Positions 3,701 to 38,347 of a DNA stretch of 64,000 nt are shown one piece after another; the stretch's first letter is position 1; each line of letters opens with the position of its first letter. Under the pieces are notes generated by a model, which searched no databases, had not been told where the DNA came from, and saw only the letters and a list, made by a program, of their open reading frames with translations. The position numbers and the translations under genes were made by a program. The stretch is from Rickettsiales bacterium. Lineage in GTDB: Bacteria > Pseudomonadota > Alphaproteobacteria > Rickettsiales > UBA998. The DNA is taken from assembly GCA_046348685.1 (NCBI GenBank), contig JAXMDT010000006.1:2395-66394 (forward strand), written 5' to 3'.

Positions 3701-4448
3701 TACCATCCACGTTCACGGTGCTGTCGACCAGGCTGGCGGCATCTGTGGCAGTCAATGCCACATACGAAGCTGCGATCGTGCCGGTATGTGTTATAGACGT
3801 TTCTTTTGCGGCATCGGTAACAGCGATAGATACCAATCCATCGCCGTAAAGATCCAACGTTGCCGTTTCTGCCCCAGCGAGTTGTGCCTTGCCAAGCTTG
3901 GCGGTGATGATGCCGTTGTTCTCGACGTTAGGCGCAAGTATCGCTACTAAGCCTGCGTCTTTTGCGGTGATGGAACCGTTCGCAATAATTTTTGCATCTG
4001 CATGACCCGGTATGGTCAGTTTAAGCGGCCCGTCCTGCAGGAATGCATCGTTACTGATATCTGCTGTCGTGGCGATAAGGCTACCGACATCGACCTTGGA
4101 ATTCTTGCTGAAGACCATGCCGCTTGGGTTGGAAAGGATCACCGTACCATTCGCCGTGATGCTGCCGAGAATCTGCGATGGATTCTGATCATGGATGCGG
4201 TTCAGTGTGATGGCACTGGTGGACGGCTGTTTGAAATCAACGCGCTCACCTGCACCAATGTTAAAACTATTCCAGTCAATCGCTGCGCGGTTCGTACTTT
4301 GCGTGACCGTCGTAATATTTGCTGTTTGCCCGATGATTGCGCTGCCTGCAGACACAGTCCCGCCCGCCGGTGCAGCCTGGACGGGAATGCAAGGCAGGCA
4401 GCACAATGCTGTCGAGGCAAGGAGCGTACGGTAAAAGAAGGACTGCAT
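750..4448 (-). CDS. TpsA-type filamentous haemagglutinin-like exoprotein (two-partner secretion passenger)
   Basis: A signal peptide is followed by a TPS/haemagglutination-activity domain (NRAAIDWNSFNIGAGERVDF...NRI...SQILGSITANGTVILSNPSGMVF). There are more than 8 tandem ~40-aa G-x-GG-(T/S) beta-helix repeats and a Pro-rich C-terminal region. Confidence 0.85.
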   Translation of the reverse strand: MQSFFYRTLLASTALCCLPCIPVQAAPAGGTVSAGSAIIGQTANITTVTQSTNRAAIDWNSFNIGAGERVDFKQPSTSAITLNRIHDQNPSQILGSITANGTVILSNPSGMVFSKNSKVDVGSLIATTADISNDAFLQDGPLKLTIPGHADAKIIANGSITAKDAGLVAILAPNVENNGIITAKLGKAQLAGAETATLDLYGDGLVSIAVTDAAKETSITHTGTIAASYVALTATDAASLVDSTVNVDGIIDASDARIENGALTFGGKIEVTARNVTLETDARLRATGKDGGGIVKVGGGWQGKGTIRNAKNTTVKTGARINASATDNGNGGIVAVWSDETTQFDGTILAKGGPNDGNGGHIETSGKINLGLTGSADASSAWGTVGEWLLDPRNVTIQNNAQPGAENNVPGTGGVVNAPSDSYRISAESIGVALSAGNNVTITTGTTGTTQSGVITLGTADITSTSATDVTLTLKADSYINSTGNNTITATGTGKLHTVFWADAGLHDTTEGGAVSLVNTNITTNGGDFYVGGGADDGFDITDTAGNVLNDGAANDGRPDHFALGTSALVSGVRINNSDITTGAGSVTILGQGATTSSASLMGIRMEGGSSIQSTSGNMKLIGFGGTGTSTNRGVSLDGAGTELATTSGAITVYGKGGTSTSNGDRGVVMATGAKISSAGTGVVGDIRITGVGGTDLNTQSGIYLTNANTEISTVDADIILHGTGGTGTNGGNVLGIGVIQGAKITSAGTGASAGKISLTGIAGTSTTGSNQGVHLNDQDTAITSIDGDIYIEGRGGNAPGANNFGIIVTDQVVVESLGTTANAAKIEMKGYGGSGTNSAVGLRVEDYAVVRSGYGDITMEGTGGTGTEDRARGVLFNLYAGVESTGTGPTAANITIKGTGGSSLDNDHGVVIAVAGFIHSVDGDIDITGKGGTGSGASNYGFYMLSDATSVADVPAEVWTTGDGNIAINATSNGIAPAFSSMGDLTNYLGKNTSTGNITINTNTMSNNLVTVQTTGVVTVAPTSTSTDIGVAGAPGTLQLTEAFLNSIDAGSLVIGRADSSGFININQHMWDAPVEFKTGPNGLINLMGSQTGAPGTNASITFSGPARTFYDIDFTGTTGTGVTFNSSRDVKTGGGSGSLNTGSTPVPSDPGVPAPPSPGIPGTPDTPQLPPVYIMNQAILSAVIAQEDIEHRQMYNAANLGNFDAYLQRHVDLPLYSLDPELEKKLGLKN

Positions 4449-8773: not shown

Positions 8774-11467
8774 TTACTTCTTCTGAATCGCCGCTTGCGC
8801 TGCCGCCAGGCGTGCGATCGGTACGCGGTACGGAGAGCAGGATACATAATTAAGTCCGGCTTTCTGGCAGAAACTGATCGAGCGCGGATCGCCGCCATGT
8901 TCGCCGCAGATGCCGAGCTTAATGTCACTGCGCGTTTTCTTGCCGCGTTCCGCTGCGAGCTGGATCAGCTCGCCTACGCCGTCCTGGTCGAGCGAGACGA
9001 AGGGGTCTACCTCGACGATGCCTTGTTTCTTATAAGCCTCGATAAAATTGGCCGAATCGTCGCGGCTGATGCCGAAGGTCGTCTGCGTCAGATCGTTGGT
9101 GCCGAAGCTGAAGAACTGCGCAGACTCGGCAATCTCACCGGCACGTAATGCGGCACGCGGTAGCTCAATCATGGTGCCGACAAGGTAATCGATCTTCTTG
9201 CCTTTTTCCTGCATCACCGCTTCGGCGGTTTTGTCGATCAATGCCTTCAGGATTTTCAGCTCGCTATGAGTCATGATCAGCGGGATCATGATTTCCGGTA
9301 CAACGGGTGAGCCGTCAGTTGCATCGATCGCTGCTTCGAAAATCGCGCGCGCCTGCATCTCATAGATTTCCGGATAGGTGATCCCGAGGCGGCAACCACG
9401 GTGGCCAAGCATGGGGTTCGATTCCTTGAGTGCGCCCGAGCGTTGTTTCACATAGTCAACACTGACGCCCGCCGACTGTGCCACTTCTTTAATCTCGGCT
9501 TCCGAGTGCGGCAGGAATTCATGCAGCGGTGGATCGAGCAAGCGGATCGTCACCGGCAGGCCTTCCATGATTTTGAAAAGGTCGGTGAAATCCTGGCGCT
9601 GCATCGGCAGCAGTTTTGCGAGTGCGGCGCGACGCTGCGTTTCCGTTTCGGAGAGAATCATCTCGCGCATGCTGGAAATACGCGCAGCATCAAAGAACAT
9701 ATGTTCGGTGCGGCATAGACCGATGCCTTCGGCGCCGAACTCGCGCGCGGTTTTCGCATCGAGCGGAGTTTCGGCATTGGTGCGGACTTTCAGCGTGCGG
9801 ACTTCATCGGCCCACTGCATGAGCTTGGCGAAATCCCCAGAAAGGTTCGGCTGGATGGTCGGCACCTTGCCGAGCATGACTTCTCCCGTCGAGCCGTTGA
9901 TGGTGATGATCTCGCCTTCCTTGATCACTTTGCCGCCGGCTTTGAATTCGCCTTTCGCATAATCGATGGCAAGCTCTCCTGCACCGGAGACGCAGGGTTT
10001 GCCCATGCCACGGGCAACAACTGCAGCATGACTGGTCATGCCGCCGCGTGCGGTCAGGATGCCTTCGGAGACATGCATGCCGTGAATATCTTCCGGGCTG
10101 GTTTCAATGCGCACCAGCAAGACCGACTCGCCTTTCTTCGCCAGTTCCTCCGCCTTGTCCGAGGAGAAAATCACTTTACCGCATGCCGCGCCCGGTGAGG
10201 CAGGAAGGCCTTTGGCAACAATCGTTTTCGGCGCTTTCGGGTCGAGCGTCGGGTGCAGCAATTGATCGAGCGCCATCGGGTCGACGCGCATCACGGCTTC
10301 TTCCTTGGTGATGAGTTTTTCATCCATCATATCGACAGCGATTTTCACGCTCGCCGCGGCGGTGCGCTTGCCGTTACGGGTTTGAAGCATATAGAGCTTG
10401 CGGTTCTGCACCGTAAACTCAATGTCCTGCATGTCGCGGTAATGTTTTTCGAGTTTGTCGAAGACGGCTGCGAGTTGTTTATACACATCCGGCATGACTT
10501 CTTCCATCGATGGCAGGTCACCGCCTTCGGCTTTGCCTTTGATAGTCAGCGGCTGCGGCGTGCGGATACCGGCGACGACATCTTCACCTTGTGCATTCAC
10601 CAGATATTCGCCGTAATAGGCATGCTCGCCCGTCGAGGGGTTGCGCGTGAAAGCAACGCCAGTGGCGCAATCATCGCCCATATTGCCGAACACCATCGAC
10701 TGGACATTGACCGCCGTACCCCAGCTTTCCGGAATATTGTGCAGGCGGCGGTAGGTATTGGCGCGGGCATTCATCCAGGAGTCGAAAACGGCCTGGATCG
10801 CTCCCCAGAGCTGCTCGGTCGGATCGGAAGGGAAGTCCTTGCCGAGTTCTTCCGCGACTTTGTCTTTGTAAAGCTCAACGATTTCTTTTAAATCGTTGGC
10901 GGAAAGCTCGGTATCGAGCGAGACATCCTTATCGCGTTTCAGCTGCTCAAGAATTTCCTCGAAGTGATAATGATCGACGCCCAGCACCACATCCGAATAC
11001 ATCTGGATAAAGCGGCGGTAGCTGTCATACGCGAAGCGCGGGTTATTCGTTTTCTTGGCGAGGCCTTCCGTCGTCGCATCGTTGAGGCCAAGGTTCAGGA
11101 TCGTATCCATCATTCCTGGCATCGAGGCGCGTGCGCCCGAGCGCACGGAGACGAGAAGGGGATTAGCCGGATCGCCGAACGTATAGCCGGTGGAAGCTTC
11201 GATTTTTTTGAGGCCTGCCATGACTTGCTCATTCAGGCTTTCCGGCAACTTCTTGCCGTTAGCGTAATAGGCGACGCAGACTTCGGTGGTGATGGTGAAT
11301 CCAGGGGGAACAGGCAGGCCGAGCGATGACATCTCCGCAAGGTTCGCGCCTTTGCCGCCGAGCAGGTCGCGCATGTCGACCTTGCCTTCGGACGTGCCGT
11401 CGCCGAAACTGTAGACGTATTTCGCGGCGTCGCTGCTCATTTTTTTAGCGGCGTTCGTGGTAGCCAT
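8774..11467 (-). CDS. ppdK: pyruvate, phosphate dikinase
   Basis: The ORF is 897 aa. Motifs GGKGANLAEM, the GGMTSHAAVVARGMGKPCV phospho-His loop and a C-terminal PEP-utilising TIM-barrel motif (GLCRTEHMF) are present. Confidence 0.95.
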   Translation of the reverse strand: MATTNAAKKMSSDAAKYVYSFGDGTSEGKVDMRDLLGGKGANLAEMSSLGLPVPPGFTITTEVCVAYYANGKKLPESLNEQVMAGLKKIEASTGYTFGDPANPLLVSVRSGARASMPGMMDTILNLGLNDATTEGLAKKTNNPRFAYDSYRRFIQMYSDVVLGVDHYHFEEILEQLKRDKDVSLDTELSANDLKEIVELYKDKVAEELGKDFPSDPTEQLWGAIQAVFDSWMNARANTYRRLHNIPESWGTAVNVQSMVFGNMGDDCATGVAFTRNPSTGEHAYYGEYLVNAQGEDVVAGIRTPQPLTIKGKAEGGDLPSMEEVMPDVYKQLAAVFDKLEKHYRDMQDIEFTVQNRKLYMLQTRNGKRTAAASVKIAVDMMDEKLITKEEAVMRVDPMALDQLLHPTLDPKAPKTIVAKGLPASPGAACGKVIFSSDKAEELAKKGESVLLVRIETSPEDIHGMHVSEGILTARGGMTSHAAVVARGMGKPCVSGAGELAIDYAKGEFKAGGKVIKEGEIITINGSTGEVMLGKVPTIQPNLSGDFAKLMQWADEVRTLKVRTNAETPLDAKTAREFGAEGIGLCRTEHMFFDAARISSMREMILSETETQRRAALAKLLPMQRQDFTDLFKIMEGLPVTIRLLDPPLHEFLPHSEAEIKEVAQSAGVSVDYVKQRSGALKESNPMLGHRGCRLGITYPEIYEMQARAIFEAAIDATDGSPVVPEIMIPLIMTHSELKILKALIDKTAEAVMQEKGKKIDYLVGTMIELPRAALRAGEIAESAQFFSFGTNDLTQTTFGISRDDSANFIEAYKKQGIVEVDPFVSLDQDGVGELIQLAAERGKKTRSDIKLGICGEHGGDPRSISFCQKAGLNYVSCSPYRVPIARLAAAQAAIQKK

Positions 11468-11503: not shown

Positions 11504-13567
11504 TTATACGTCCGCTATCAACCCGAAATTGGCGATACTGTCAAGTAATCCACGCACTTCCGAGAGCAATTTCAAACGGTTTTCGCGTATTTTTTTATCC
11601 TCGGCATTAACCATTACGCCCACAAAAAACGCATCCACCGCAGGGCGCAGCGCCGCAACCCGTTGCATGACCTGAATATAATCTTCGTTTTTGAGTGAAG
11701 CGGCAATATCGCTGCGGGTTTTTTCGAGTTCCGTATGCAGGGTTTTTTCCGCTGGCTCTGTCAGCAGGCTGCTATCGACCTTGCCAACATATTGCGTTTT
11801 ATCTTTTTTCTCTTCTTTCTCGACGATGTTTACCGCGCGGCGGTAGCCCGCGAGCAGGTTTTTGCCGTCTTCCGTACCGATGAAGGACTGGATGGCGTTG
11901 GCACGGGCGATAAGGCGCACCAGATCGTCTTCCTTGCCGCCGTCAAAGATCGCCTCGATCAGGTCATGGCGCACACCTTCGGTTTTTAAAATCACCTTCA
12001 GGCGGTCGGAGAAGAAGGCAAGGAGTTCTTCAACCAATGCATCAGGCTTTGCTTGTTTGGCAAATGACGTGAGCGCAGTCTTTAGCATTTCACGCAGCGA
12101 CAGGCGCAGCTTATTATCCAGAATGATACGAATGATACCAAGCGCCGAACGGCGGAGCGCAAAGGGATCTTTCGAGCCGGTGGGTTTTTCGCCCGCCGCA
12201 AAAAGTCCGCACAGGCTATCGAGTTTGTCGGCCAGCGCGACTGTGATCGCCAGCTTACTTTGCGGCAGCGCATCTTCCGCGCCTTGCGGTTTATAATGAT
12301 CGCGAATCGCGTCGGCGATATCAGTGGGAAGTTTCTGTTCAAGCGCATAGTAGCGGCCCATGACGCCTTGCAATTCCGGGAACTCGCCGACCATGCCGGT
12401 GACTAAATCCGCTTTGCAGAGCGATGCTACTTGCTCCGCTTTTTTCGAATCAGCGCCGGTGATTTTGCTGAGCGATGCGCTGAGCGCGGTGATACGCTTT
12501 ACCTTCTCGCCCATGCTGCCGAGCTTGGCGTGGAACAGCATGTCATCAAGGCCCTTGTTCCACTCGCCAAGCGGTTTTTTCTTATCCTGCTCCCAGTAGA
12601 ATTTTCCATCTTCAAGGCGGGCACGGACGACGCGTTCATTGCCGGCGATGATCTTATTGCCATCGTCGCGGGCAATCATGTTGGCGGTGATGAGAAAGCG
12701 GTTGGAGAGCGAGCCGTCCTTGTTCAGGAGCGCAAAATATTTCTGGTGGTGGCGCATTTCCAGAATGGGCACTTCCGGCGGCAGCGCCAGAAATTCCTTA
12801 TCGAACGTTCCGACCAGCATGACCGGCCATTCGACGAGTCCGGTCACTTCATTCAGCAATCCTTCATCTTCTTTCAGCACAAGGCCGTGTTCATTCGCAA
12901 TGTGATTTGCTTCTTTCGCGATCCAGGCTTTGCGTTCTTCGGCGCTCGCAATCACGGACGCATGTTTCAACGCTTCGACGTACTCATTCGGATGCTTGAT
13001 GGTAATAGTTTCCTTCGAGAGGAAACGGTGGCCGCGTGTGGTATTGCCGGAGGTGACATGGCCGATAGTGAGCGGTACGACATCATGATCGAACAAGCAG
13101 ATGATGGAGCGTAGCGGGCGCACCCAGCTCATTGGAGTGGCTCCCCAGCGCATGGATTTCGGCCAGGGGAAATCTTTGAGCGCGTTTTCGATGAGGCTGG
13201 TCAGCGCTTCTTTGGTCGGCTGGCCTTTTTGCTCAATCACCGCGAAATAGACCTGCTGGCCTTTGATGTCGCGCTTTTCTAATTGATCAACCGAAAGTCC
13301 GGCCGATTTGCAAAAGCCTTCGATGGCCTGCGCCGGTGCTGAAACGTTCGGGCCTTTCTTCTCAACCGTCAGGTCAGGCTGCGCCGCGGGTACATCATGC
13401 GCGATAATGGCGAGACGGCGCGGCGTGACAAAACTTTCGATTTTAGACGGCTTTAAACGCGCATCTTCCAATGCCTTGCTAATACGCGACTGCAATTCGC
13501 CAATCGCCGCTGCCTGCATACGGGCAGGAATTTCTTCGGAGAATAATTCGAGGAGGAGGCTAGGCAT
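11504..13567 (-). CDS. glyS: glycine--tRNA ligase beta subunit
   Basis: I moved the start to ATG 13567 ([18 protein letters not shown], the canonical GlyS N-terminus). The 17 upstream codons in the ORF track (..[12 protein letters not shown]) are read-through of a family B repeat arm. Confidence 0.9.
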   Translation of the reverse strand: MPSLLLELFSEEIPARMQAAAIGELQSRISKALEDARLKPSKIESFVTPRRLAIIAHDVPAAQPDLTVEKKGPNVSAPAQAIEGFCKSAGLSVDQLEKRDIKGQQVYFAVIEQKGQPTKEALTSLIENALKDFPWPKSMRWGATPMSWVRPLRSIICLFDHDVVPLTIGHVTSGNTTRGHRFLSKETITIKHPNEYVEALKHASVIASAEERKAWIAKEANHIANEHGLVLKEDEGLLNEVTGLVEWPVMLVGTFDKEFLALPPEVPILEMRHHQKYFALLNKDGSLSNRFLITANMIARDDGNKIIAGNERVVRARLEDGKFYWEQDKKKPLGEWNKGLDDMLFHAKLGSMGEKVKRITALSASLSKITGADSKKAEQVASLCKADLVTGMVGEFPELQGVMGRYYALEQKLPTDIADAIRDHYKPQGAEDALPQSKLAITVALADKLDSLCGLFAAGEKPTGSKDPFALRRSALGIIRIILDNKLRLSLREMLKTALTSFAKQAKPDALVEELLAFFSDRLKVILKTEGVRHDLIEAIFDGGKEDDLVRLIARANAIQSFIGTEDGKNLLAGYRRAVNIVEKEEKKDKTQYVGKVDSSLLTEPAEKTLHTELEKTRSDIAASLKNEDYIQVMQRVAALRPAVDAFFVGVMVNAEDKKIRENRLKLLSEVRGLLDSIANFGLIADV

Positions 13568-13949
13568 CAACAGGTTCCAGGTTTCGGGTTTCAGGTTCCA
13601 GAGAGCGTAACAGTCCATTTAGCATGCGGCTAATCTCTGCTGTTTTATGAGTGAGTTCTTCCAATTTTTCACGAGATAAAAATTGAAGATCACAGGCTAA
13701 AATCAGTTGAGTTTCTAATTCAGCTAGAGAACCGGTGGCCACCCTTAGATGATATGTAAACTCTTTTTTAGATGAGCGGCATCTCCCTTCCGCAATATTG
13801 GATGGAATAGAAATAGCTGCTCGCTGAATCTGCTGAGTAAGTGCATATATTTCTGTTTTAGGAAAGTCCTGGGTAGCCAAATATACTTCTTTCACAAGTA
13901 ATCTGGATTTTTTCCATACATCTAAATCCTGATACGAAAGAATGGTCAT
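13560..13949 (-). CDS. four-helix-bundle protein (23S rRNA intervening-sequence protein / Avd-like family)
   Basis: [18 protein letters not shown]...[16 protein letters not shown]...[17 protein letters not shown] is characteristic of this family. The C-terminal [14 protein letters not shown] is encoded by the repeat arm. The ORF overlaps the panD stop (ATGA) and the glyS start. Confidence 0.85.
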
Positions 13950-13990
13950 TTTTTCTTTCCCTGGAACCCGGCACCTGAAACCCGAGACCT
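13571..13990. mobile_element. family B ('PETRN') element carrying a four-helix-bundle ORF
   Basis: The inverted arms are caggttccaggtttcgggtttcaggttccag (13571-13601) and ctggaacccggcacctgaaacccgagacct (13961-13990). They bracket ORF 13560-13949. Confidence 0.7.
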
Positions 13991-14329
13991 ATTCTTCTCA
14001 TCGACGAGCACAATCGTCGGCTTCCATTTTTTTGCAGTCTTTTCTTCCATGCGGCAGAAGGCGCAGATGATGACGAGATCACCTTTCTGCACGAGGCGGG
14101 CGGCGGCGCCATTGACGGTGATTTCGCCGGAACCGGATTTTTTCCCGGCAATCGCGTACGTCGTAAACCGTGCGCCGTTGGCGATGTTCAACACATCGAC
14201 CTGTTCATATTCCAGAATGCCGGAGGCTTTGAGAAGGGCAGGGTCAATCGTGATCGAGCCCTCGTAATTGAGATCACTACCCGTGACGGTGGCGCGGTGC
14301 AGTTTGGTTTTAAGCAACGTGAGATACAT
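13946..14329 (-). CDS. panD: aspartate 1-decarboxylase
   Basis: [29 protein letters not shown] contains the processing Gly-Ser site. The last ~14 codons ([13 protein letters not shown]) are encoded by a family B arm. Confidence 0.9.
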
Positions 14330-14331
14330 AA

Positions 14332-15279
14332 TTAGCTTCCAGCTGCCAGGTTTCGGGTTTCGGAAGGTATCGTGTTAGGCTCTTTTTCCTGGAACCCGGA
14401 ACCTGGAACCCGAATTCCATCTAACCAAGCAGAACAACACCCTTTAGCCAGCGCGCGCACGCGTCCTATATAAGCCGCACGCTCGGTGACGCCGATAGCG
14501 CCGCGCGAATCGAGCAGGTTGAAGAGATGGCTCGCCTTCAGGCAGTAATCATAGGCGGGCAGCGCCATGCCGCCAATATCGAGCAGGCGCGCGCATTCTT
14601 TTTCCACGTCGTTAAAATGGCGGAACAGCATTTCCGTGTTGGCATGCTCCAGATTGAAGCCGGAGAATTCCACCTCGTTGCGTTTGAAGACATCGCCGTA
14701 GGTTTTCTGCGGATAGCCTTCGGGCGGGTTATTCCATTTGAGATCGTAGACGTTATCGACGCCCTGGATATACATAGCGAGGCGCTCGATGCCGTATGTC
14801 AATTCACCAGAAACGGGGCTGCATTCAAAGCCGCCCACTTGTTGAAAATACGTGAATTGCGTTACTTCCATGCCGTCGCACCAGACTTCCCAGCCAAGCC
14901 CCCACGCGCCGAGCGTCGGGCTTTCCCAGTCATCCTCAACGAAGCGTATATCATGTTCATGCGGGTCGATGCCGAGTTCGACGAGGCTGCCGAGATACAA
15001 ATCCTGAATGTTGTCCGGGGAGGGTTTCAGGATCACCTGAAACTGGTAGTAATGCTGCAAGCGGTTCGGATTCTCACCATATCGGCCATCTTTTGGACGG
15101 CGGGATGGCTGCACATAGGCCACATTCCATGTTTCGGGGCCGAGGGTGCGCAGCGTCGTTGCGGTGTGGAAGGTGCCGGCCCCGACTTCCATATCATAGG
15201 GCTGCAAAATAACGCAGCCGCGATCTCCCCAATAGCGCTGGAGGGTTAAGATAATGTCCTGGAAGCTTTTAACCGTCAT
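14332..15279 (-). CDS. glyQ: glycine--tRNA ligase alpha subunit
   Basis: [12 protein letters not shown]...[19 protein letters not shown] is present. The ~25-aa C-terminal extension (..[25 protein letters not shown]) is encoded by a family B repeat. Confidence 0.95.
14346..14415. repeat. family B hairpin element inside the 3' end of glyQ
   Basis: The sequence is ccaggtttcgggtttcgga...tcctggaacccggaacctggaacccgaa. Confidence 0.7.
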
Positions 15280-25611: not shown

Positions 25612-27255
25612 ATGATGCAACTATACCTTTCACAGATAAATCCTATTGTGGGCGACCTCAAGGGAAACCATGAAAAACTTTGCTCTGCGTGGAAAAAAGC
25701 AAAGGAAATGGGCGCTGATCTCATTGTTTTTCCGGAGCTTGCCATTACAGGTTATCCACCCGAAGACCTGGTGCTAATGCCATCTTTCCAGCAGGCGGCG
25801 ATGCAGGCAGTCGAAAAGCTGGCCAACGAAACGGTGGATGGCCCTGCCATCATTACCGGCGGAATCTGGCACGACGGCACACAGCTTTATAATTCCGCGT
25901 TTCTGATTGAAGAAGGGAATATCGCCCGCATCCAGTTCAAGCATCATCTGCCGAATTATGGCGTATTTGACGAAAAACGCGTCTTTGCCTGCGGCCCGCT
26001 GCCGGAGGTTGTCGAATGGAGAGGAATCAGAATCGGCCTGCTCGTCTGCGAAGACATGTGGGGCGATGAATCGGTTGCGCACGTGGCGAAACAAAATCCG
26101 GATGTGCTGATTTCCATTAATGCTTCCCCCTATGAACGCGGTAAAATGAGCGCGCGAGAAGAGGTGGCGCGCGATGCGGTATCCACCTGCCGTGCGCCGC
26201 TGTTTTATGTGAATACGGTCGGCGGGCAGGATGAAATCGTCTTTGACGGCCGTTCATTTGTGATGGATGCATCCGGTGAGGTATGCGGCAAGTTCAAGGC
26301 ATTCGAAGAGCAGGTTTCGGGTTTCGGGTTTCAGGTTTCGGGAAAAGAAATTGAATTACTCTCCCCTGACAGCTGGAACCTGGAACCTAAAGCGTTAGAG
26401 CTGCTCTACCTCGCCATGATGACCGGCGTGCGGGATTACGTGGAAAAAAATAATTTTCCCGGCGTGGTGATCGGGCTGTCGGGGGGAATCGATTCGGCAT
26501 TGACGGCGTGTGTGGCGGTGGATGCGCTCGGGCCGGAGCGGGTGCATTGCGTAATGATGCCCTCGAAGTATACCTCCGATATCAGTGTCGTCGATGCGAC
26601 TAAACTTGCCACCGAACTTGGCGTGACCTACAACATCGTCACCATCGCGCAAGGCATGGAAGCGGTGGAGGGTATGCTGGCCGGTATACGCGATCAGCTG
26701 ACCTCGCTGGCGATGGAAAATATCCAGCCGCGGATTCGCGGATTGCTGTTGATGGCGATCAGCAATTCCACCGGTAAAATCCTGCTGACGACCGGTAATA
26801 AATCCGAAATGGCGACCGGTTATGCCACGCTTTACGGGGATATGTGCGGTGCATTCAATGTATTGAAAGACCTTTATAAAATGGAAGTCTATGCGCTCTC
26901 CGAATGGCGCAATATGTCGATGCCGCAAGGTGCGAAAGGGCCGGAAGGTGCGGTGATTCCAGAGAGGATTATATCCCGCCCGCCCAGCGCCGAACTGAAG
27001 CCGGACCAAACTGATCAGGATACACTGCCGCCCTATGCGACACTCGATGCGATCCTGAAAGGGCTGGTGGAGGAACGCTTGTCTGTAGAGGATCTGACCG
27101 CGCGCGGATTTGAAAAAACGATGATCGAACAGGTGGCTGGCATGCTGTTTCGCTCGGAATATAAACGCCGGCAAGCCCCGCCGGGGGTCAAACTCTCCTC
27201 GATGAGCTTTGGCCGCGATCGGAGATACCCGCTGACCAACGGGTTTAAACTCTAA
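25612..27255 (+). CDS. nadE: glutamine-dependent NAD+ synthetase
   Basis: An N-terminal CN-hydrolase domain (FPELAITGYPPEDL...LVCEDMW) is followed by a C-terminal synthetase domain (GLSGGIDSAL). The two are separated by a 26-codon repeat insertion. Confidence 0.95.
   Translation: MMQLYLSQINPIVGDLKGNHEKLCSAWKKAKEMGADLIVFPELAITGYPPEDLVLMPSFQQAAMQAVEKLANETVDGPAIITGGIWHDGTQLYNSAFLIEEGNIARIQFKHHLPNYGVFDEKRVFACGPLPEVVEWRGIRIGLLVCEDMWGDESVAHVAKQNPDVLISINASPYERGKMSAREEVARDAVSTCRAPLFYVNTVGGQDEIVFDGRSFVMDASGEVCGKFKAFEEQVSGFGFQVSGKEIELLSPDSWNLEPKALELLYLAMMTGVRDYVEKNNFPGVVIGLSGGIDSALTACVAVDALGPERVHCVMMPSKYTSDISVVDATKLATELGVTYNIVTIAQGMEAVEGMLAGIRDQLTSLAMENIQPRIRGLLLMAISNSTGKILLTTGNKSEMATGYATLYGDMCGAFNVLKDLYKMEVYALSEWRNMSMPQGAKGPEGAVIPERIISRPPSAELKPDQTDQDTLPPYATLDAILKGLVEERLSVEDLTARGFEKTMIEQVAGMLFRSEYKRRQAPPGVKLSSMSFGRDRRYPLTNGFKL
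26311..26388. repeat. family B hairpin element inserted in frame in nadE
   Basis: The sequence caggtttcgggtttcgggtttcaggtttcggg...agctggaacctggaacct is 78 bp (26 codons) and encodes QVSGFGFQVSGKEIELLSPDSWNLEP. Confidence 0.8.
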
Positions 27256-34998: not shown

Positions 34999-35073
34999 GG
35001 TTTCAGCTTTCAGGTTTCAGGTTTTAGTATATTTATAAACCATGCTGACACCTGAAACCCGGCACCTGAATCC
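34999..35073. repeat. family B hairpin element spanning the methyltransferase start codon
   Basis: The sequence is ggtttcagctttcaggtttcaggtttt-agtatatttataaaccATGctgaca-cctgaaacccggcacctgaatcc. Confidence 0.75.
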
Positions 35074-35776
35074 CCCCACCGTCATTCTCGATCGCCCGCA
35101 GATGGGCGAAAACATCGGCGCGGTGGCGCGCGCGATGATGAATTTCGGCATGCGCGAATTGCGGCTGGTGAACCCGCGCGACGGCTGGCCGAATCCGAAG
35201 GCGCATGAGATGAGCGCCAATGCCGATGTGATCATCGAGGCGGCACGCGTATACGATACGTTTTCCTCGGCGCTTGCCGATTGCCATTTCGTGATTGCGG
35301 CGACCGCCCGAAAACGCGAATTGGAAATTCCGACTTACACGCCGCGCGAATCGGCTTCTCTGCTGCTCGAAAAAATGCGCGATGGCGAAAAGGTAGGCAT
35401 CGTGCTCGGCGGCGAGCGGGCGGGACTTGCCAATGAAGATATCGTTCACTGCCAGGCGATCTGCACGATCCCTACCGACCCTGCCAATGCCTCGCTGAAT
35501 ATCGCACAGAGCATGGTGATTTTAGGCTATGAATGGTGGATGGCCACTCTGCAGGACGCAGAGCATAGCGGCCCGGAGATGGCCCATGCCACCAACGGCG
35601 AGCGGCAGGCGCTCTACGAGCACCTCGTCTGGGCGCTCGATAATAGCCAGTATTTCCAACACGAGGGCAGGGCGCTCGTCATGCAGCGCAACCTTCGTTC
35701 CATGCTGGCGCGGCTTCCTCTAACATCCCAGCAAATACAGTCGCTTAGGGGCATGATTCGGGCGCTGATGTCTTAA
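35042..35776 (+). CDS. TrmH/SpoU-family RNA methyltransferase (TrmJ/LasT-like, group 1)
   Basis: VILDRPQMGENIGAVARAMMNFGMRELRLVNPR...VLGGERAGLANED...IPTDPANASLNIAQSM is present. The first ~10 codons (MLTPETRHLNP) come from the repeat. Confidence 0.8.
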   Translation: MLTPETRHLNPPTVILDRPQMGENIGAVARAMMNFGMRELRLVNPRDGWPNPKAHEMSANADVIIEAARVYDTFSSALADCHFVIAATARKRELEIPTYTPRESASLLLEKMRDGEKVGIVLGGERAGLANEDIVHCQAICTIPTDPANASLNIAQSMVILGYEWWMATLQDAEHSGPEMAHATNGERQALYEHLVWALDNSQYFQHEGRALVMQRNLRSMLARLPLTSQQIQSLRGMIRALMS

Positions 35777-36818: not shown

Positions 36819-38282
36819 ATGGCACGTTGGTGGAATAAGACGAAAAAGGCTGTAGGAAACGCTACGATTGGCGAGCAGGCACGTTATAACCGGCTAAACG
36901 CTGCTGTGGGCGCAACAGAAGACGAGCTGAGCAGACTTGAGACTGGGACCGGGGGTACAAGGGGTCTCCTCGACCTCGAGCATGAGCATGAGGAAGCTGT
37001 TGCTAAACATGCTGAAGCGGCAGCCGCGCATGCAGAAGCAAAAGACGCATTTACCCCAATTGATATTCAGCAGAAAAAACTACAAGCGGAAGTTACAGGT
37101 GCGAAAACGCGCCTTGAGGCACTTCAAAAAGCTCATGAAGCTGCAGAAAAGGCCCATGCCGATCATCAAGCGAAAATTAGCGATATTGAAAGCCGTGTCG
37201 GTTCGGCTTCGGTTGAAGACCTTGCGCAAGCTAGGCAAGATGCCGAAATTGCCCGTGCTCAGGCACGTCACCCACTTAAAAAACTCGAGACTACGTTGCC
37301 TGGTGGAAGTACAGGTAATATTGATGAGTACTTTAAAAATGAACGGGAGAGATATAAAGAAGCCAAGCGTAAAATTAAATCCGCTTTAGGCACGCCTCGT
37401 GAAGAGACTGCAATAAAAGAGTTTAATGAAGCAAGAGCAAATCTTGTTGAAGCCCGAAAGATTCGACGTGGTACTGAAGAATACAGGGTATGGAGCGCAG
37501 CTAACAACGAGTACCTTGCAGCAGAAGCACTGCATGAGGAAGCAAAAGCCCTTGGCGGACTCCGAGCGAAATCAGATGGATTGAAAAAAGCAGCTGATCA
37601 AGCAGAAGCAAAACTCACAGGGAGTCCTGATCATGTGAAGCTTAAGGAAGCAGAAGCGGCATTGGAGACTCACACAACGGAAGTACATACACCTGCTGCA
37701 AACAGGTTGGCATTAGCAAAAGAGGCAGTTGAAGGCGGATCCGTTACAGGCACTCGCGAAGCAATGAAAAACGCTGAGCATGCACTTAAATCGACAACCC
37801 GCCGCCAGGAATTACTGGAAGGCCGACTTGAGCGCCAAACAAAACGCTTGGAGCAGGTCGGCGAAAAATGGCGGATCGGCAAGTCTGGTAAGATTGTGAC
37901 GGGTCCAATGAAATTTGCTGGAAAAACGTTGAAATGGGGTGGTCTTGGTGTGTTGGCAGCCGGCGCTGGCGCTTTGGCTTACAATGCGCTAAAGCCTTCA
38001 AATCGCGGTTCTGATGAGGCGCTGCAAGGTCTGAAAGACCAGATCGCCGAAAATGAAGCGAAGCTGACGGCGATTCAGACGATGCAGCCGCAGCAGCCGG
38101 TGATGCAGCAGCCGATCATGGTTGCCGCGACGCCGCAAGGCCCGGTCGCAACGCAATATCCGCCCGTAATGATGGTTCCGGCGAACAGCAATGTTCCAGC
38201 AACCTCGATTACCAGCGCCGGCCTGCAGTACCAGGGTCAGCTGATAGCGAATCAAGGCCAGATGATGGGAGCGCCTGCGTAG
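36819..38282 (+). CDS. coiled-coil protein with a C-terminal TM anchor and Q/P/M-rich tail
   Basis: This 487-aa ORF starts 9 nt after the previous stop. Long heptad-like Ala/Glu/Lys helices are followed by TM WGGLGVLAAGAGALAYNAL. The tail is MQPQQPVMQQPIMVAATPQG...LQYQGQLIANQGQ. Confidence 0.6.
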   Translation: MARWWNKTKKAVGNATIGEQARYNRLNAAVGATEDELSRLETGTGGTRGLLDLEHEHEEAVAKHAEAAAAHAEAKDAFTPIDIQQKKLQAEVTGAKTRLEALQKAHEAAEKAHADHQAKISDIESRVGSASVEDLAQARQDAEIARAQARHPLKKLETTLPGGSTGNIDEYFKNERERYKEAKRKIKSALGTPREETAIKEFNEARANLVEARKIRRGTEEYRVWSAANNEYLAAEALHEEAKALGGLRAKSDGLKKAADQAEAKLTGSPDHVKLKEAEAALETHTTEVHTPAANRLALAKEAVEGGSVTGTREAMKNAEHALKSTTRRQELLEGRLERQTKRLEQVGEKWRIGKSGKIVTGPMKFAGKTLKWGGLGVLAAGAGALAYNALKPSNRGSDEALQGLKDQIAENEAKLTAIQTMQPQQPVMQQPIMVAATPQGPVATQYPPVMMVPANSNVPATSITSAGLQYQGQLIANQGQMMGAPA

Positions 38283-38292
38283 GCTTCATCCC

Positions 38293-38347
38293 CAGCTTTC
38301 AGGTTTCAGGTTAATCGGGTTCAGCATGCTGAACCCGATTTTCTTTT
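38293..38347 (+). terminator. repeat-derived rho-independent terminator
   Basis: A family B half-arm cagctttcaggtttcaggtt is followed by the hairpin aatcgggttcagc/gctgaacccgatt and TTCTTTT. Confidence 0.7.

Follow-up and report, generated by a model that had tools for sequence, protein, structure and literature searches.

Intervening sequences (IVSs) with an S23p/PF05635 open reading frame (ORF) in the loop of a terminal stem of about 30 bp are known from the 23S rRNA of Leptospira, Coxiella burnetii, Xanthomonas and Brucella. The origin and function of rRNA IVSs and of their conserved ORF have been in question since the early 1990s. The PF05635 family, to which no function has yet been assigned, is very large: in one homologue search, 7,966 of the 8,000 candidates scored reached E-values of 1e-5 or lower. 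In a 64,000-nt stretch of DNA from a Rickettsiales bacterium (GenBank assembly GCA_046348685.1, contig JAXMDT010000006.1, positions 2,395 to 66,394 of the forward strand; the window, hereafter), a cassette of the same design lies between panD and glyS. A PF05635 ORF (the IVP ORF, 13560-13949, minus strand, 129 aa), predicted to encode a four-helix-bundle protein, forms the loop cargo of the cassette and is bracketed by inverted arms of tandem heptamers. We consider it probable, if not assured, that the cassette belongs to a widespread class of selfish, promoterless elements that has settled at the panD-glyS junction, and that rRNA IVSs are the rRNA-resident case of this class.

The Coxiella 23S IVS has a 28-bp stem with three tandem GACAGAT heptamers in the 5' arm, upstream of the S23p ORF. 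The heptamer copy number differs between strains, and RNase III cuts within the stem (PMC4990558). The S23p ORF was reported to be decaying and probably untranslated; the idea that IVSs are mobile was reviewed by the same authors and left unsettled (PMC4990558). Other reported sites of IVP genes are cas operons, among them the position between cmr3 and cmr2 (PMC3936711), and 16S and 23S insertions of Candidate Phyla Radiation (CPR) bacteria (10.1101/2024.02.27.582315). Heptamer arrays have been described separately. Xanthomonas campestris carries 186 GGGAATC arrays with 70 convergent pairs, which were read as G-quadruplex motifs (PMC4692102). One of these arrays (622956-622983) is located 6 nt past bccP (XCC0517) and shares 17 nt with the start of XCC0516, with no inverted partner listed (PMC4692102 supplement); it was not linked to PF05635 in the source paper (PMC4692102). 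In the literature that we searched in full text, we found no description of a class of PF05635 cassettes with heptamer arms residing in mRNA operons.

Each arm of the window cassette consists of four tandem heptamers of the type GGTTYCR. Read in the mRNA sense, the 5' arm (13957-13994, minus strand) contains GGTCTCG, GGTTTCA, GGTGCCG and GGTTCCA, and the 3' arm (13568-13605, minus strand) contains GGAACCT, GAAACCC, GAAACCT and GGAACCT. A repeat search found the inverted arms to be 75% complementary over 36 nt (13569-13604 and 13958-13993), with a core of 21 nt at 90% (13579-13599 and 13970-13990). As an RNA duplex (13994-13957 with 13605-13568), the arms are predicted to form 32 bp (15 GC, 12 AU and 5 GU) with a free energy of -50.8 kcal/mol. 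They are paired with each other in the minimum-energy fold of a 461-nt RNA (z=-4.4; 0 of 100 shuffles equal). The long inverted arms around the ORF and their capacity for stable pairing, both proposed in the original prediction, are thus borne out. The window has 18 occurrences of GGTTTCGGGTTTC with up to two mismatches, where 1.5 would be expected. Among related loci (labelled L001, L003 and so on; the relatives compared are of species or genus level, not strains), L003 has a 25-nt stretch of the 3' arm identical to that of the window, even though the ORF is saturated at synonymous sites. Either constraint at the nucleotide level or homogenisation must therefore act on the arms.

The IVP matches the conserved domains PF05635 (E-value: 3.9e-38; 130.4 bits, cut-off 33.8; residues 7-112 on profile positions 1-106 of 106) and TIGR02436 (E-value: 1.8e-36; 124.7 bits, cut-off 24), in agreement with its earlier assignment to the four-helix-bundle family of 23S IVSs. 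It is the only IVP gene in the 64-kb window, and its exact protein sequence has no record among public assemblies. The closest solved relative is XCC0516 of X. campestris (PDB 2GSC; E-value: 1.9e-20 over residues 6-116), and sequence homology with this protein suggests a four-helix-bundle fold and a pentameric assembly. The motif RxxxSxxxNxxE is present in the translation; in the longer motif GxxRxxxSxxxNxxE (PMC3936711), the upstream Gly is replaced by Ala in the window IVP (YALTQQIQR). Against homologues, dN is 0.29-0.49 (0.29-0.33 against L001 and L003), which indicates that the ORF evolves under purifying selection, in a qualitative sense only because dS is saturated. No PADLOC defence-system model matched the IVP (0 families at E-values of 0.01 or lower).

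The genes glyQ (14332-15279; the PF02091 profile ends at residue 287 of 315), panD (13946-14329; aspartate 1-decarboxylase, PF02261 E-value: 1.5e-48, profile ending at residue 114 of 127), the IVP ORF, glyS (11504-13567) and ppdK (8774-11467) are all on the minus strand and form one transcription unit. The presence of panD within a glyQS operon is itself an uncommon synteny. The mechanical glyS ORF extends from 11504 to 13618. In its translation the family profiles TIGR00211 and PF02092 begin at residue 21 and NF011499 at residue 20, so the true glyS ATG is at 13567-13565. The IVP ORF overlaps panD at its start, where its start codon and the panD stop form ATGA, and overlaps the glyS start at its stop by 8 nt (ATGCCTAG), both as originally predicted; the same 8-nt overlap is found in L001. 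The 5' arm terminates in a Shine-Dalgarno-like AGGGAAAG upstream of the IVP ATG, and the 3' arm spans the bases directly upstream of the glyS ATG. Both arms also contribute to protein C-termini, again as read earlier. PanD has a 13-residue tail encoded at the 5' arm, with the last ~9 codons coming from the arm (PanD proteins of relatives end ...KNKAKK or ...NKPTGK, without the tail), and the 3' arm encodes the IVP tail EPETRNLEP. A site scan found no promoter-like or terminator-like site within the cassette, and the sole minus-strand terminator-like site after the operon is at 8718-8699, 3' of ppdK. Neither a promoter nor a terminator is evident in the cassette itself, which runs in the same direction as the operon and overlaps both neighbours at its start and stop.

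The cassette shares with 23S IVSs its protein family, the placement of the ORF in the loop of a ~30-bp terminal stem, and the lack of its own promoter with use of host transcription; as in the Coxiella IVS, the arm that precedes the ORF contains tandem heptamers. Unlike 23S IVSs, its host transcript is a protein-coding operon rather than rRNA, and its arms have been absorbed into reading frames (the PanD and IVP tails). Unlike the Coxiella IVS ORF, the window ORF is probably translationally coupled to its neighbours and is under purifying selection. RNase III excision is known for the Coxiella IVS and would be a prediction for the window cassette. rRNA insertions of this kind are found in 23S helix 9, 25 or 45, or in 16S in CPR bacteria. 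The window cassette lies between panD and glyS, and an Rfam scan of the window found no rRNA or other family. Because it lies outside rRNA, the cassette is not a 23S IVS, though it is IVS-like in design. The view of the locus as an IVS-like stem-plus-ORF unit within a polycistronic operon is supported by the arms, the protein family and the likeness to the Coxiella heptamers. The analogy is made stronger by those heptamers and by the RNase III cut in the Coxiella stem (PMC4990558). The tandem-heptamer structure of the arms, the ORF-less hairpins described below and the generality of the design were absent from the original prediction.

This generality is evident from a scan of one genome per species, which gave 80 loci with IVPs 44-58% identical to that of the window, from Acidobacteriota, Bacteroidota, Bacillota, Planctomycetota, Desulfobacterota, CPR bacteria and others. 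Inverted repeats with a score of at least 30 flank 36 of the 78 testable IVP ORFs (46%), compared with 8 of 553 control ORFs from the same loci (1.4%). Seven is the best period in 29 of the 36 repeat-flanked loci. The heptamer itself varies by locus (GGTGAAC, AGTGGTT, GGATTCA, GGTTTTC, CAGTTGT, GGGAATG and others), and the polarity of the arms is kept, the 5' arm being rich in G/T and the 3' arm in C/A. Arms and protein co-vary: loci with similar arms have more similar IVPs (Mantel rho 0.22, p=0.001). Many homologues have C-terminal tails with a 7-aa period (e.g., PETRNLE and PDPRPLT), as translation of a heptamer array would give. By a crude ORF-based call, both neighbours are co-directional with the IVP gene in 54 of 70 loci, and the median gaps to the neighbours (73 and 48 nt) are roughly the length of an arm. 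The locus's own arm recurs within 4 kb on either side in 14 of the 36 loci, at 29 places compared with 3 in a cross-locus control. The conserved 23S motif GCGTAATAGCTCAC, taken as a marker of 23S context, was absent from the 87 loci tested, though this is a weak test. The glyQS locus is therefore one instance of a common, apparently under-described architecture and not a one-off regulatory invention. The locus is not special in this respect: its design is what PF05635 genes of various phyla typically show.

The original prediction had also named the same ORF without arms in relatives as a refuting outcome, and had suggested a search for empty sites in the glyQ-glyS region. The nearest IVP homologues (L001, L003, L088 and L090) all bear cassette-type arms, so neither this outcome nor the other one open to computation, arms that fail to pair, occurred. 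In L001 (IVP 69% aa identity), the order is glyQ-panD-IVP-glyS with the junction as in the window. In L003 (IVP 63%) and L088 (IVP 62%), the order is glyQ-IVP-panD. In L090 (IVP 56%), the cassette is in another housekeeping operon, glyA-IVP-nrdR-ribD. An ORF-less hairpin with the same heptamers (3842-3940) lies at the next junction of that operon, between nrdR and ribD, where it overlaps the ribD start, and a solo array (1547-1560) lies upstream of glyA. A cassette with a gene-less hairpin adjacent to it is a pattern common to the window and L090.

Further relatives were reached through PanD homologues, and empty sites were found in L086, L087, L213 and at the panD 3' end of L084. The sources of the PanD and IVP homologues bear names from Alphaproteobacteria, Rickettsiales and Rhodospirillaceae, which, with the glyQ-glyS-ppdK gene order, points indirectly to a probable uncultured alphaproteobacterium as the host. 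L084 has a PanD 91% identical to that of the window and an IVP only 49% identical; this IVP has GGGGATC-type arms and sits at the glyQ-panD junction. The window and L084 IVPs are therefore not vertical orthologues. In L084 a C92 peptidase gene lies between panD and glyS. L086 (PanD 80%) and L087 (PanD 83%) have clean glyQ-panD junctions, normal PanD C-termini and no arms. The panD-glyS gap holds two small Cys-rich ORFs with hydrophobic, signal-peptide-like N-termini in L086 and a 154-aa ORF of no recognised kind in L087. In L213, the closest PanD relative (93%), panD lies outside the operon, away from glyQ, and lacks the arm-derived tail. Orthologous sites are thus occupied, empty or differently occupied among L001, L003, L084, L086, L087, L088 and L213.

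Some other features of these loci were also observed. The panD-glyS gap is a variable-cargo site in the clade, and the glyS-ppdK junction of L001 holds a SET-domain gene and an ORF of no recognised kind. At the glyQ-panD junction of L001 (715-760) there is a single array of another heptamer (GAGAGGC, GAGAGAC, GAGAGTC), followed by GGAGAAGCGGCATGA; the latter resembles the cassette leader of L084 (GGGAGAAGCAGCGTGA) and is fused directly to the panD start. The array resembles the remnant of a cassette that lost its IVP gene and 3' arm and kept only the 5' arm. Upstream of panD in L213 (325-362), a mini-hairpin (GGTTTGGTTCCGGCC…GGCTGGGAAACC) resembles the heptamer family.

The window contains three ORF-less hairpins with cassette-type arms and loops of ~30 nt, giving four hairpin elements in 64 kb with alignable arms; in all four, the G-rich arm is 5' relative to host transcription. 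The hairpin at the glyQ-panD junction (14340-14414, minus strand; -31.3 kcal/mol, z=-3.1) has arms 90-91% identical to those of the cassette, and the same junction holds an IVP cassette in L003, L084 and L088. GlyQ reads through this entire hairpin, gaining a C-terminal tail of ~26 aa, while the GlyQ proteins of L086 and L087 end soon after CCxAW. GlyQ, an essential tRNA-synthetase subunit, tolerates this translated palindrome. The second hairpin (26310-26390, plus strand; -35.7 kcal/mol, z=-3.4) is in frame inside nadE (25612-27255), where it is located in the linker that joins the two domains of NAD+ synthetase, glutaminase and synthetase, and reads …QVSGFGFQVSGKEIELLSPDSWNLEP…. The linker is equal in length to that of the Acinetobacter NadE structure 5KHA, so that insertion and replacement both fit. 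The third (34999-35075, plus strand; -29.5 kcal/mol, z=-5.6) is at the beginning of a gene for a SpoU-family methylase (35042-35776). The start codon is provided by the hairpin loop and the first 12 codons (MLTPETRHLNPP) by the 3' arm; the Pfam domain begins at residue 13.

Rickettsia palindromic elements (RPEs) are in-frame palindromes in alphaproteobacterial genes that add peptide segments to proteins, and the GlyQ tail, the NadE linker and the SpoU-family N-terminus are their counterparts in the window. RPEs differ in that they are 100-150 bp long and are not heptamer arrays, and we know of no association between them and a PF05635 gene. Correia elements of Neisseria (CREE/NEMIS) and similar miniature inverted-repeat transposable elements (MITEs) are short elements with terminal inverted repeats that lie at gene junctions and are co-transcribed with operons. 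Their hairpins are RNase III substrates and alter the stability of neighbouring mRNAs. Unlike the window cassette, Correia elements lack heptamer arrays and carry fixed terminal repeats of 26 nt along with TA target duplications; no protein-coding master copy of them is known. The window elements are also comparable to the Xanthomonas GGGAATC and cyanobacterial STRR/GGGGAYT repeats, which are dispersed tandem 7-nt units found mostly at gene ends; the GGGAATC arrays often form convergent pairs able to fold as hairpins (70/186 arrays; PMC4692102). Unlike these repeats, which were read as G-quadruplex motifs and not connected with PF05635 genes, the window heptamer GGTTYCR is not G-quadruplex-prone.

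The proposed model for the cassette is as follows. The IVP would be expressed from host transcription and by translational coupling to panD, and glyS initiation, with its initiation region at the edge of the 3' arm, would in turn be coupled to IVP translation. On untranslated RNA the arms could pair to form a 32-bp helix, a plausible RNase III substrate as in rRNA; cleavage of this stem would sever panD from glyS in the transcript and set the IVP message free. By analogy with the Coxiella IVS, such cleavage is plausible. The IVP probably binds the heptamer arms or the stem, given its homology with the nucleic-acid-binding pentamers XCC0516 and Avd, and would recognise its own arms in this way. 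Over evolutionary time, the arms and ORF would move or be exchanged between junctions of housekeeping operons. Candidate routes are a host enzyme, an RNA intermediate, or recombination or gene conversion in which the arrays serve as portable homology. The ORF-less hairpins and solo arrays would then be decay products of cassettes or non-autonomous relatives.

Several observations weigh against this reading of the cassette as a selfish mobile element. No enzyme or mechanism for its movement was identified, and no catalytic motif of known type is present in the IVP. The window elements resemble MITEs and repetitive extragenic palindromic (REP) sequences in having multiple dispersed copies with shared terminal inverted repeats, and in being present or absent at orthologous sites among relatives. 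Unlike MITEs, they have neither a target-site duplication (inspection revealed no direct repeats flanking the four elements) nor a cognate transposase (none is associated with them). The recurrence of the cassette around glyQ, panD and glyS in five relatives could reflect long residence instead of repeated insertion. A search with the exact 22-nt 3' arm returned 80 metagenome loci, none of which has an adjacent IVP gene (21 are short hairpins, 4 have longer loops and the rest are solo arrays); arrays thus often occur with no gene nearby and far outnumber it. The similarity of the ORF-less loops to the cassette leader and tail (GGRAAAGAAA... and TTAC-CTCTC by eye) is not significant (p~0.12), the loop of the 35-kb hairpin showing none at all, which leaves a cassette origin of these hairpins unproven. 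The stem itself also gives grounds for caution. Both cassette arms are translated, one as the final codons of panD and the other as those of the IVP ORF, so the stem should often be melted by ribosomes. In 43 loci the stem mismatches showed no sense-strand excess of G-U over A-C (58 G-U, 56 A-C and 163 other), and we therefore make no claim of selection specifically for an RNA stem. When an 891-nt RNA that includes the adjacent glyQ-panD hairpin is folded, the four arms re-partner and panD and the IVP ORF are looped out. The arms of the two elements (A, A', B and B') are interchangeable in pairing (A:B' -41.1 kcal/mol and A':B -30.8 kcal/mol, within 13540-14430). In these predictions arm pairing is robust, and the choice of partner is not; it shifts with the RNA length used for folding. 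At the DNA level, panD or the IVP ORF could also be deleted through the direct repeats A/B (30 nt, 90%) and A'/B' (22 nt, 91%).

The stem is central to an alternative in which the cassette is a host-beneficial regulatory device, with RNase III cleavage setting the stability or translation of glyQ/panD relative to glyS/ppdK and the ORF being incidental. A long stem is indeed predicted, the glyS start region is in or beside the 3' arm, the arrangement is kept in L001 and the equivalent rRNA stem is excised by RNase III (PMC4990558). This idea, which the original prediction had raised, is weakened by the translation of both arms and by the lack of G-U bias (58 vs 56). Close relatives do without the device: L086 and L087 have other cargo and no arms, and L084 has its cassette at the other junction. 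Cassettes of this type also occur in unrelated operons (glyA-nrdR in L090; cmr3-cmr2, PMC3936711). Purifying selection on the ORF further argues that it is not incidental, and we regard a regulatory device as unlikely. The same selection fits an ordinary resident gene, that is, a vertically inherited, nucleic-acid-binding IVP for which the arrays would be autoregulatory or translation sites rather than termini. Such a gene would account for the IVP in the glyQ-panD-glyS operon of five related metagenomic lineages, for its tight coupling to its neighbours and for an arm sequence kept beyond synonymous saturation. It accounts poorly for a junction that varies, for the contrast in L084 between an IVP of 49% and a PanD of 91% identity, and for the existence of empty sites. 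The same arm type is found at glyA-nrdR, the best matches at 50-58% identity come from unrelated phyla, and ORF-less hairpins are dispersed in unrelated genes. We assign this alternative a low probability as well.

The high ratio of arrays to genes in metagenomes, where most occurrences of the arm have no neighbouring IVP, would also be expected of heptamer microsatellites that arose by replication slippage at gene junctions and came by coincidence to enclose an unrelated small gene; heptamer simple-sequence repeats are over-represented in some bacteria (PMC4692102). Coincidence is nevertheless very improbable given that inverted arrays flank 46% of IVP ORFs against 1.4% of controls in the same loci, that arm polarity is kept (5' G/T-rich, 3' C/A-rich) and that arms and protein co-vary. 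The protein family suggests one further origin. The accessory protein Avd of diversity-generating retroelements (DGRs), a pentameric nucleic-acid-binding cofactor, belongs to a homologous four-helix-bundle fold family, and the IVP gives weak matches to bAvd PF22296 (42 bits) and NF033474, so that it might be an Avd gene left after loss of the reverse transcriptase. Identity with Avd was rejected, as the NF033474 score (45.8 bits) is below the equivalog cut-off of 80 and the PF05635 and TIGR02436 scores are far higher. Next to the IVP ORF lie glyQ, panD and glyS; no reverse transcriptase, template repeat or variable repeat is adjacent, and the genomic logic differs from that of Avd. A DGR remnant therefore has a negligible probability.

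The interpretation of the cassette as a selfish, operon-embedded element can be extended, tentatively and with more doubt than confidence, to a single joint view. PF05635 heptamer cassettes may be a ubiquitous, previously unrecognised class of mobile elements embedded in operons, of which 23S and 16S IVSs are copies that landed in rRNA. ORF-less hairpins and arrays (GGTTYCR, GGGAATC and STRR) might then be non-autonomous derivatives, and the pentameric protein might recognise its cognate arms for spread or maintenance, possibly through RNA released by RNase III, in an echo of Avd and its reverse transcriptase. The comparative pattern ties together rRNA IVSs, PF05635 genes and heptamer hairpins, and in doing so makes the old IVS question experimentally approachable. 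If the cassettes live mainly in ordinary operons, then rRNA IVSs, multi-copy "four helix bundle protein" genes and over-represented heptamer repeats and hairpins become one testable system. The reported "association" of IVP genes with CRISPR or other operons may merely reflect selfish insertion.

Essential proteins (GlyQ, PanD, NadE and the SpoU-family methylase) acquire tails, linkers and even start codons from the arms, and annotation pipelines will mis-call gene ends at such sites. One further array in the window has no partner arm: a solo half-array (GCTTTCA, GGTTTCA, GGTTAAT) at 38295-38345, which lies 3' of the ORF at 36819-38282 and directly precedes a terminator-like hairpin (CGGGTTCAGCATGCTGAACCCG followed by a T-run).

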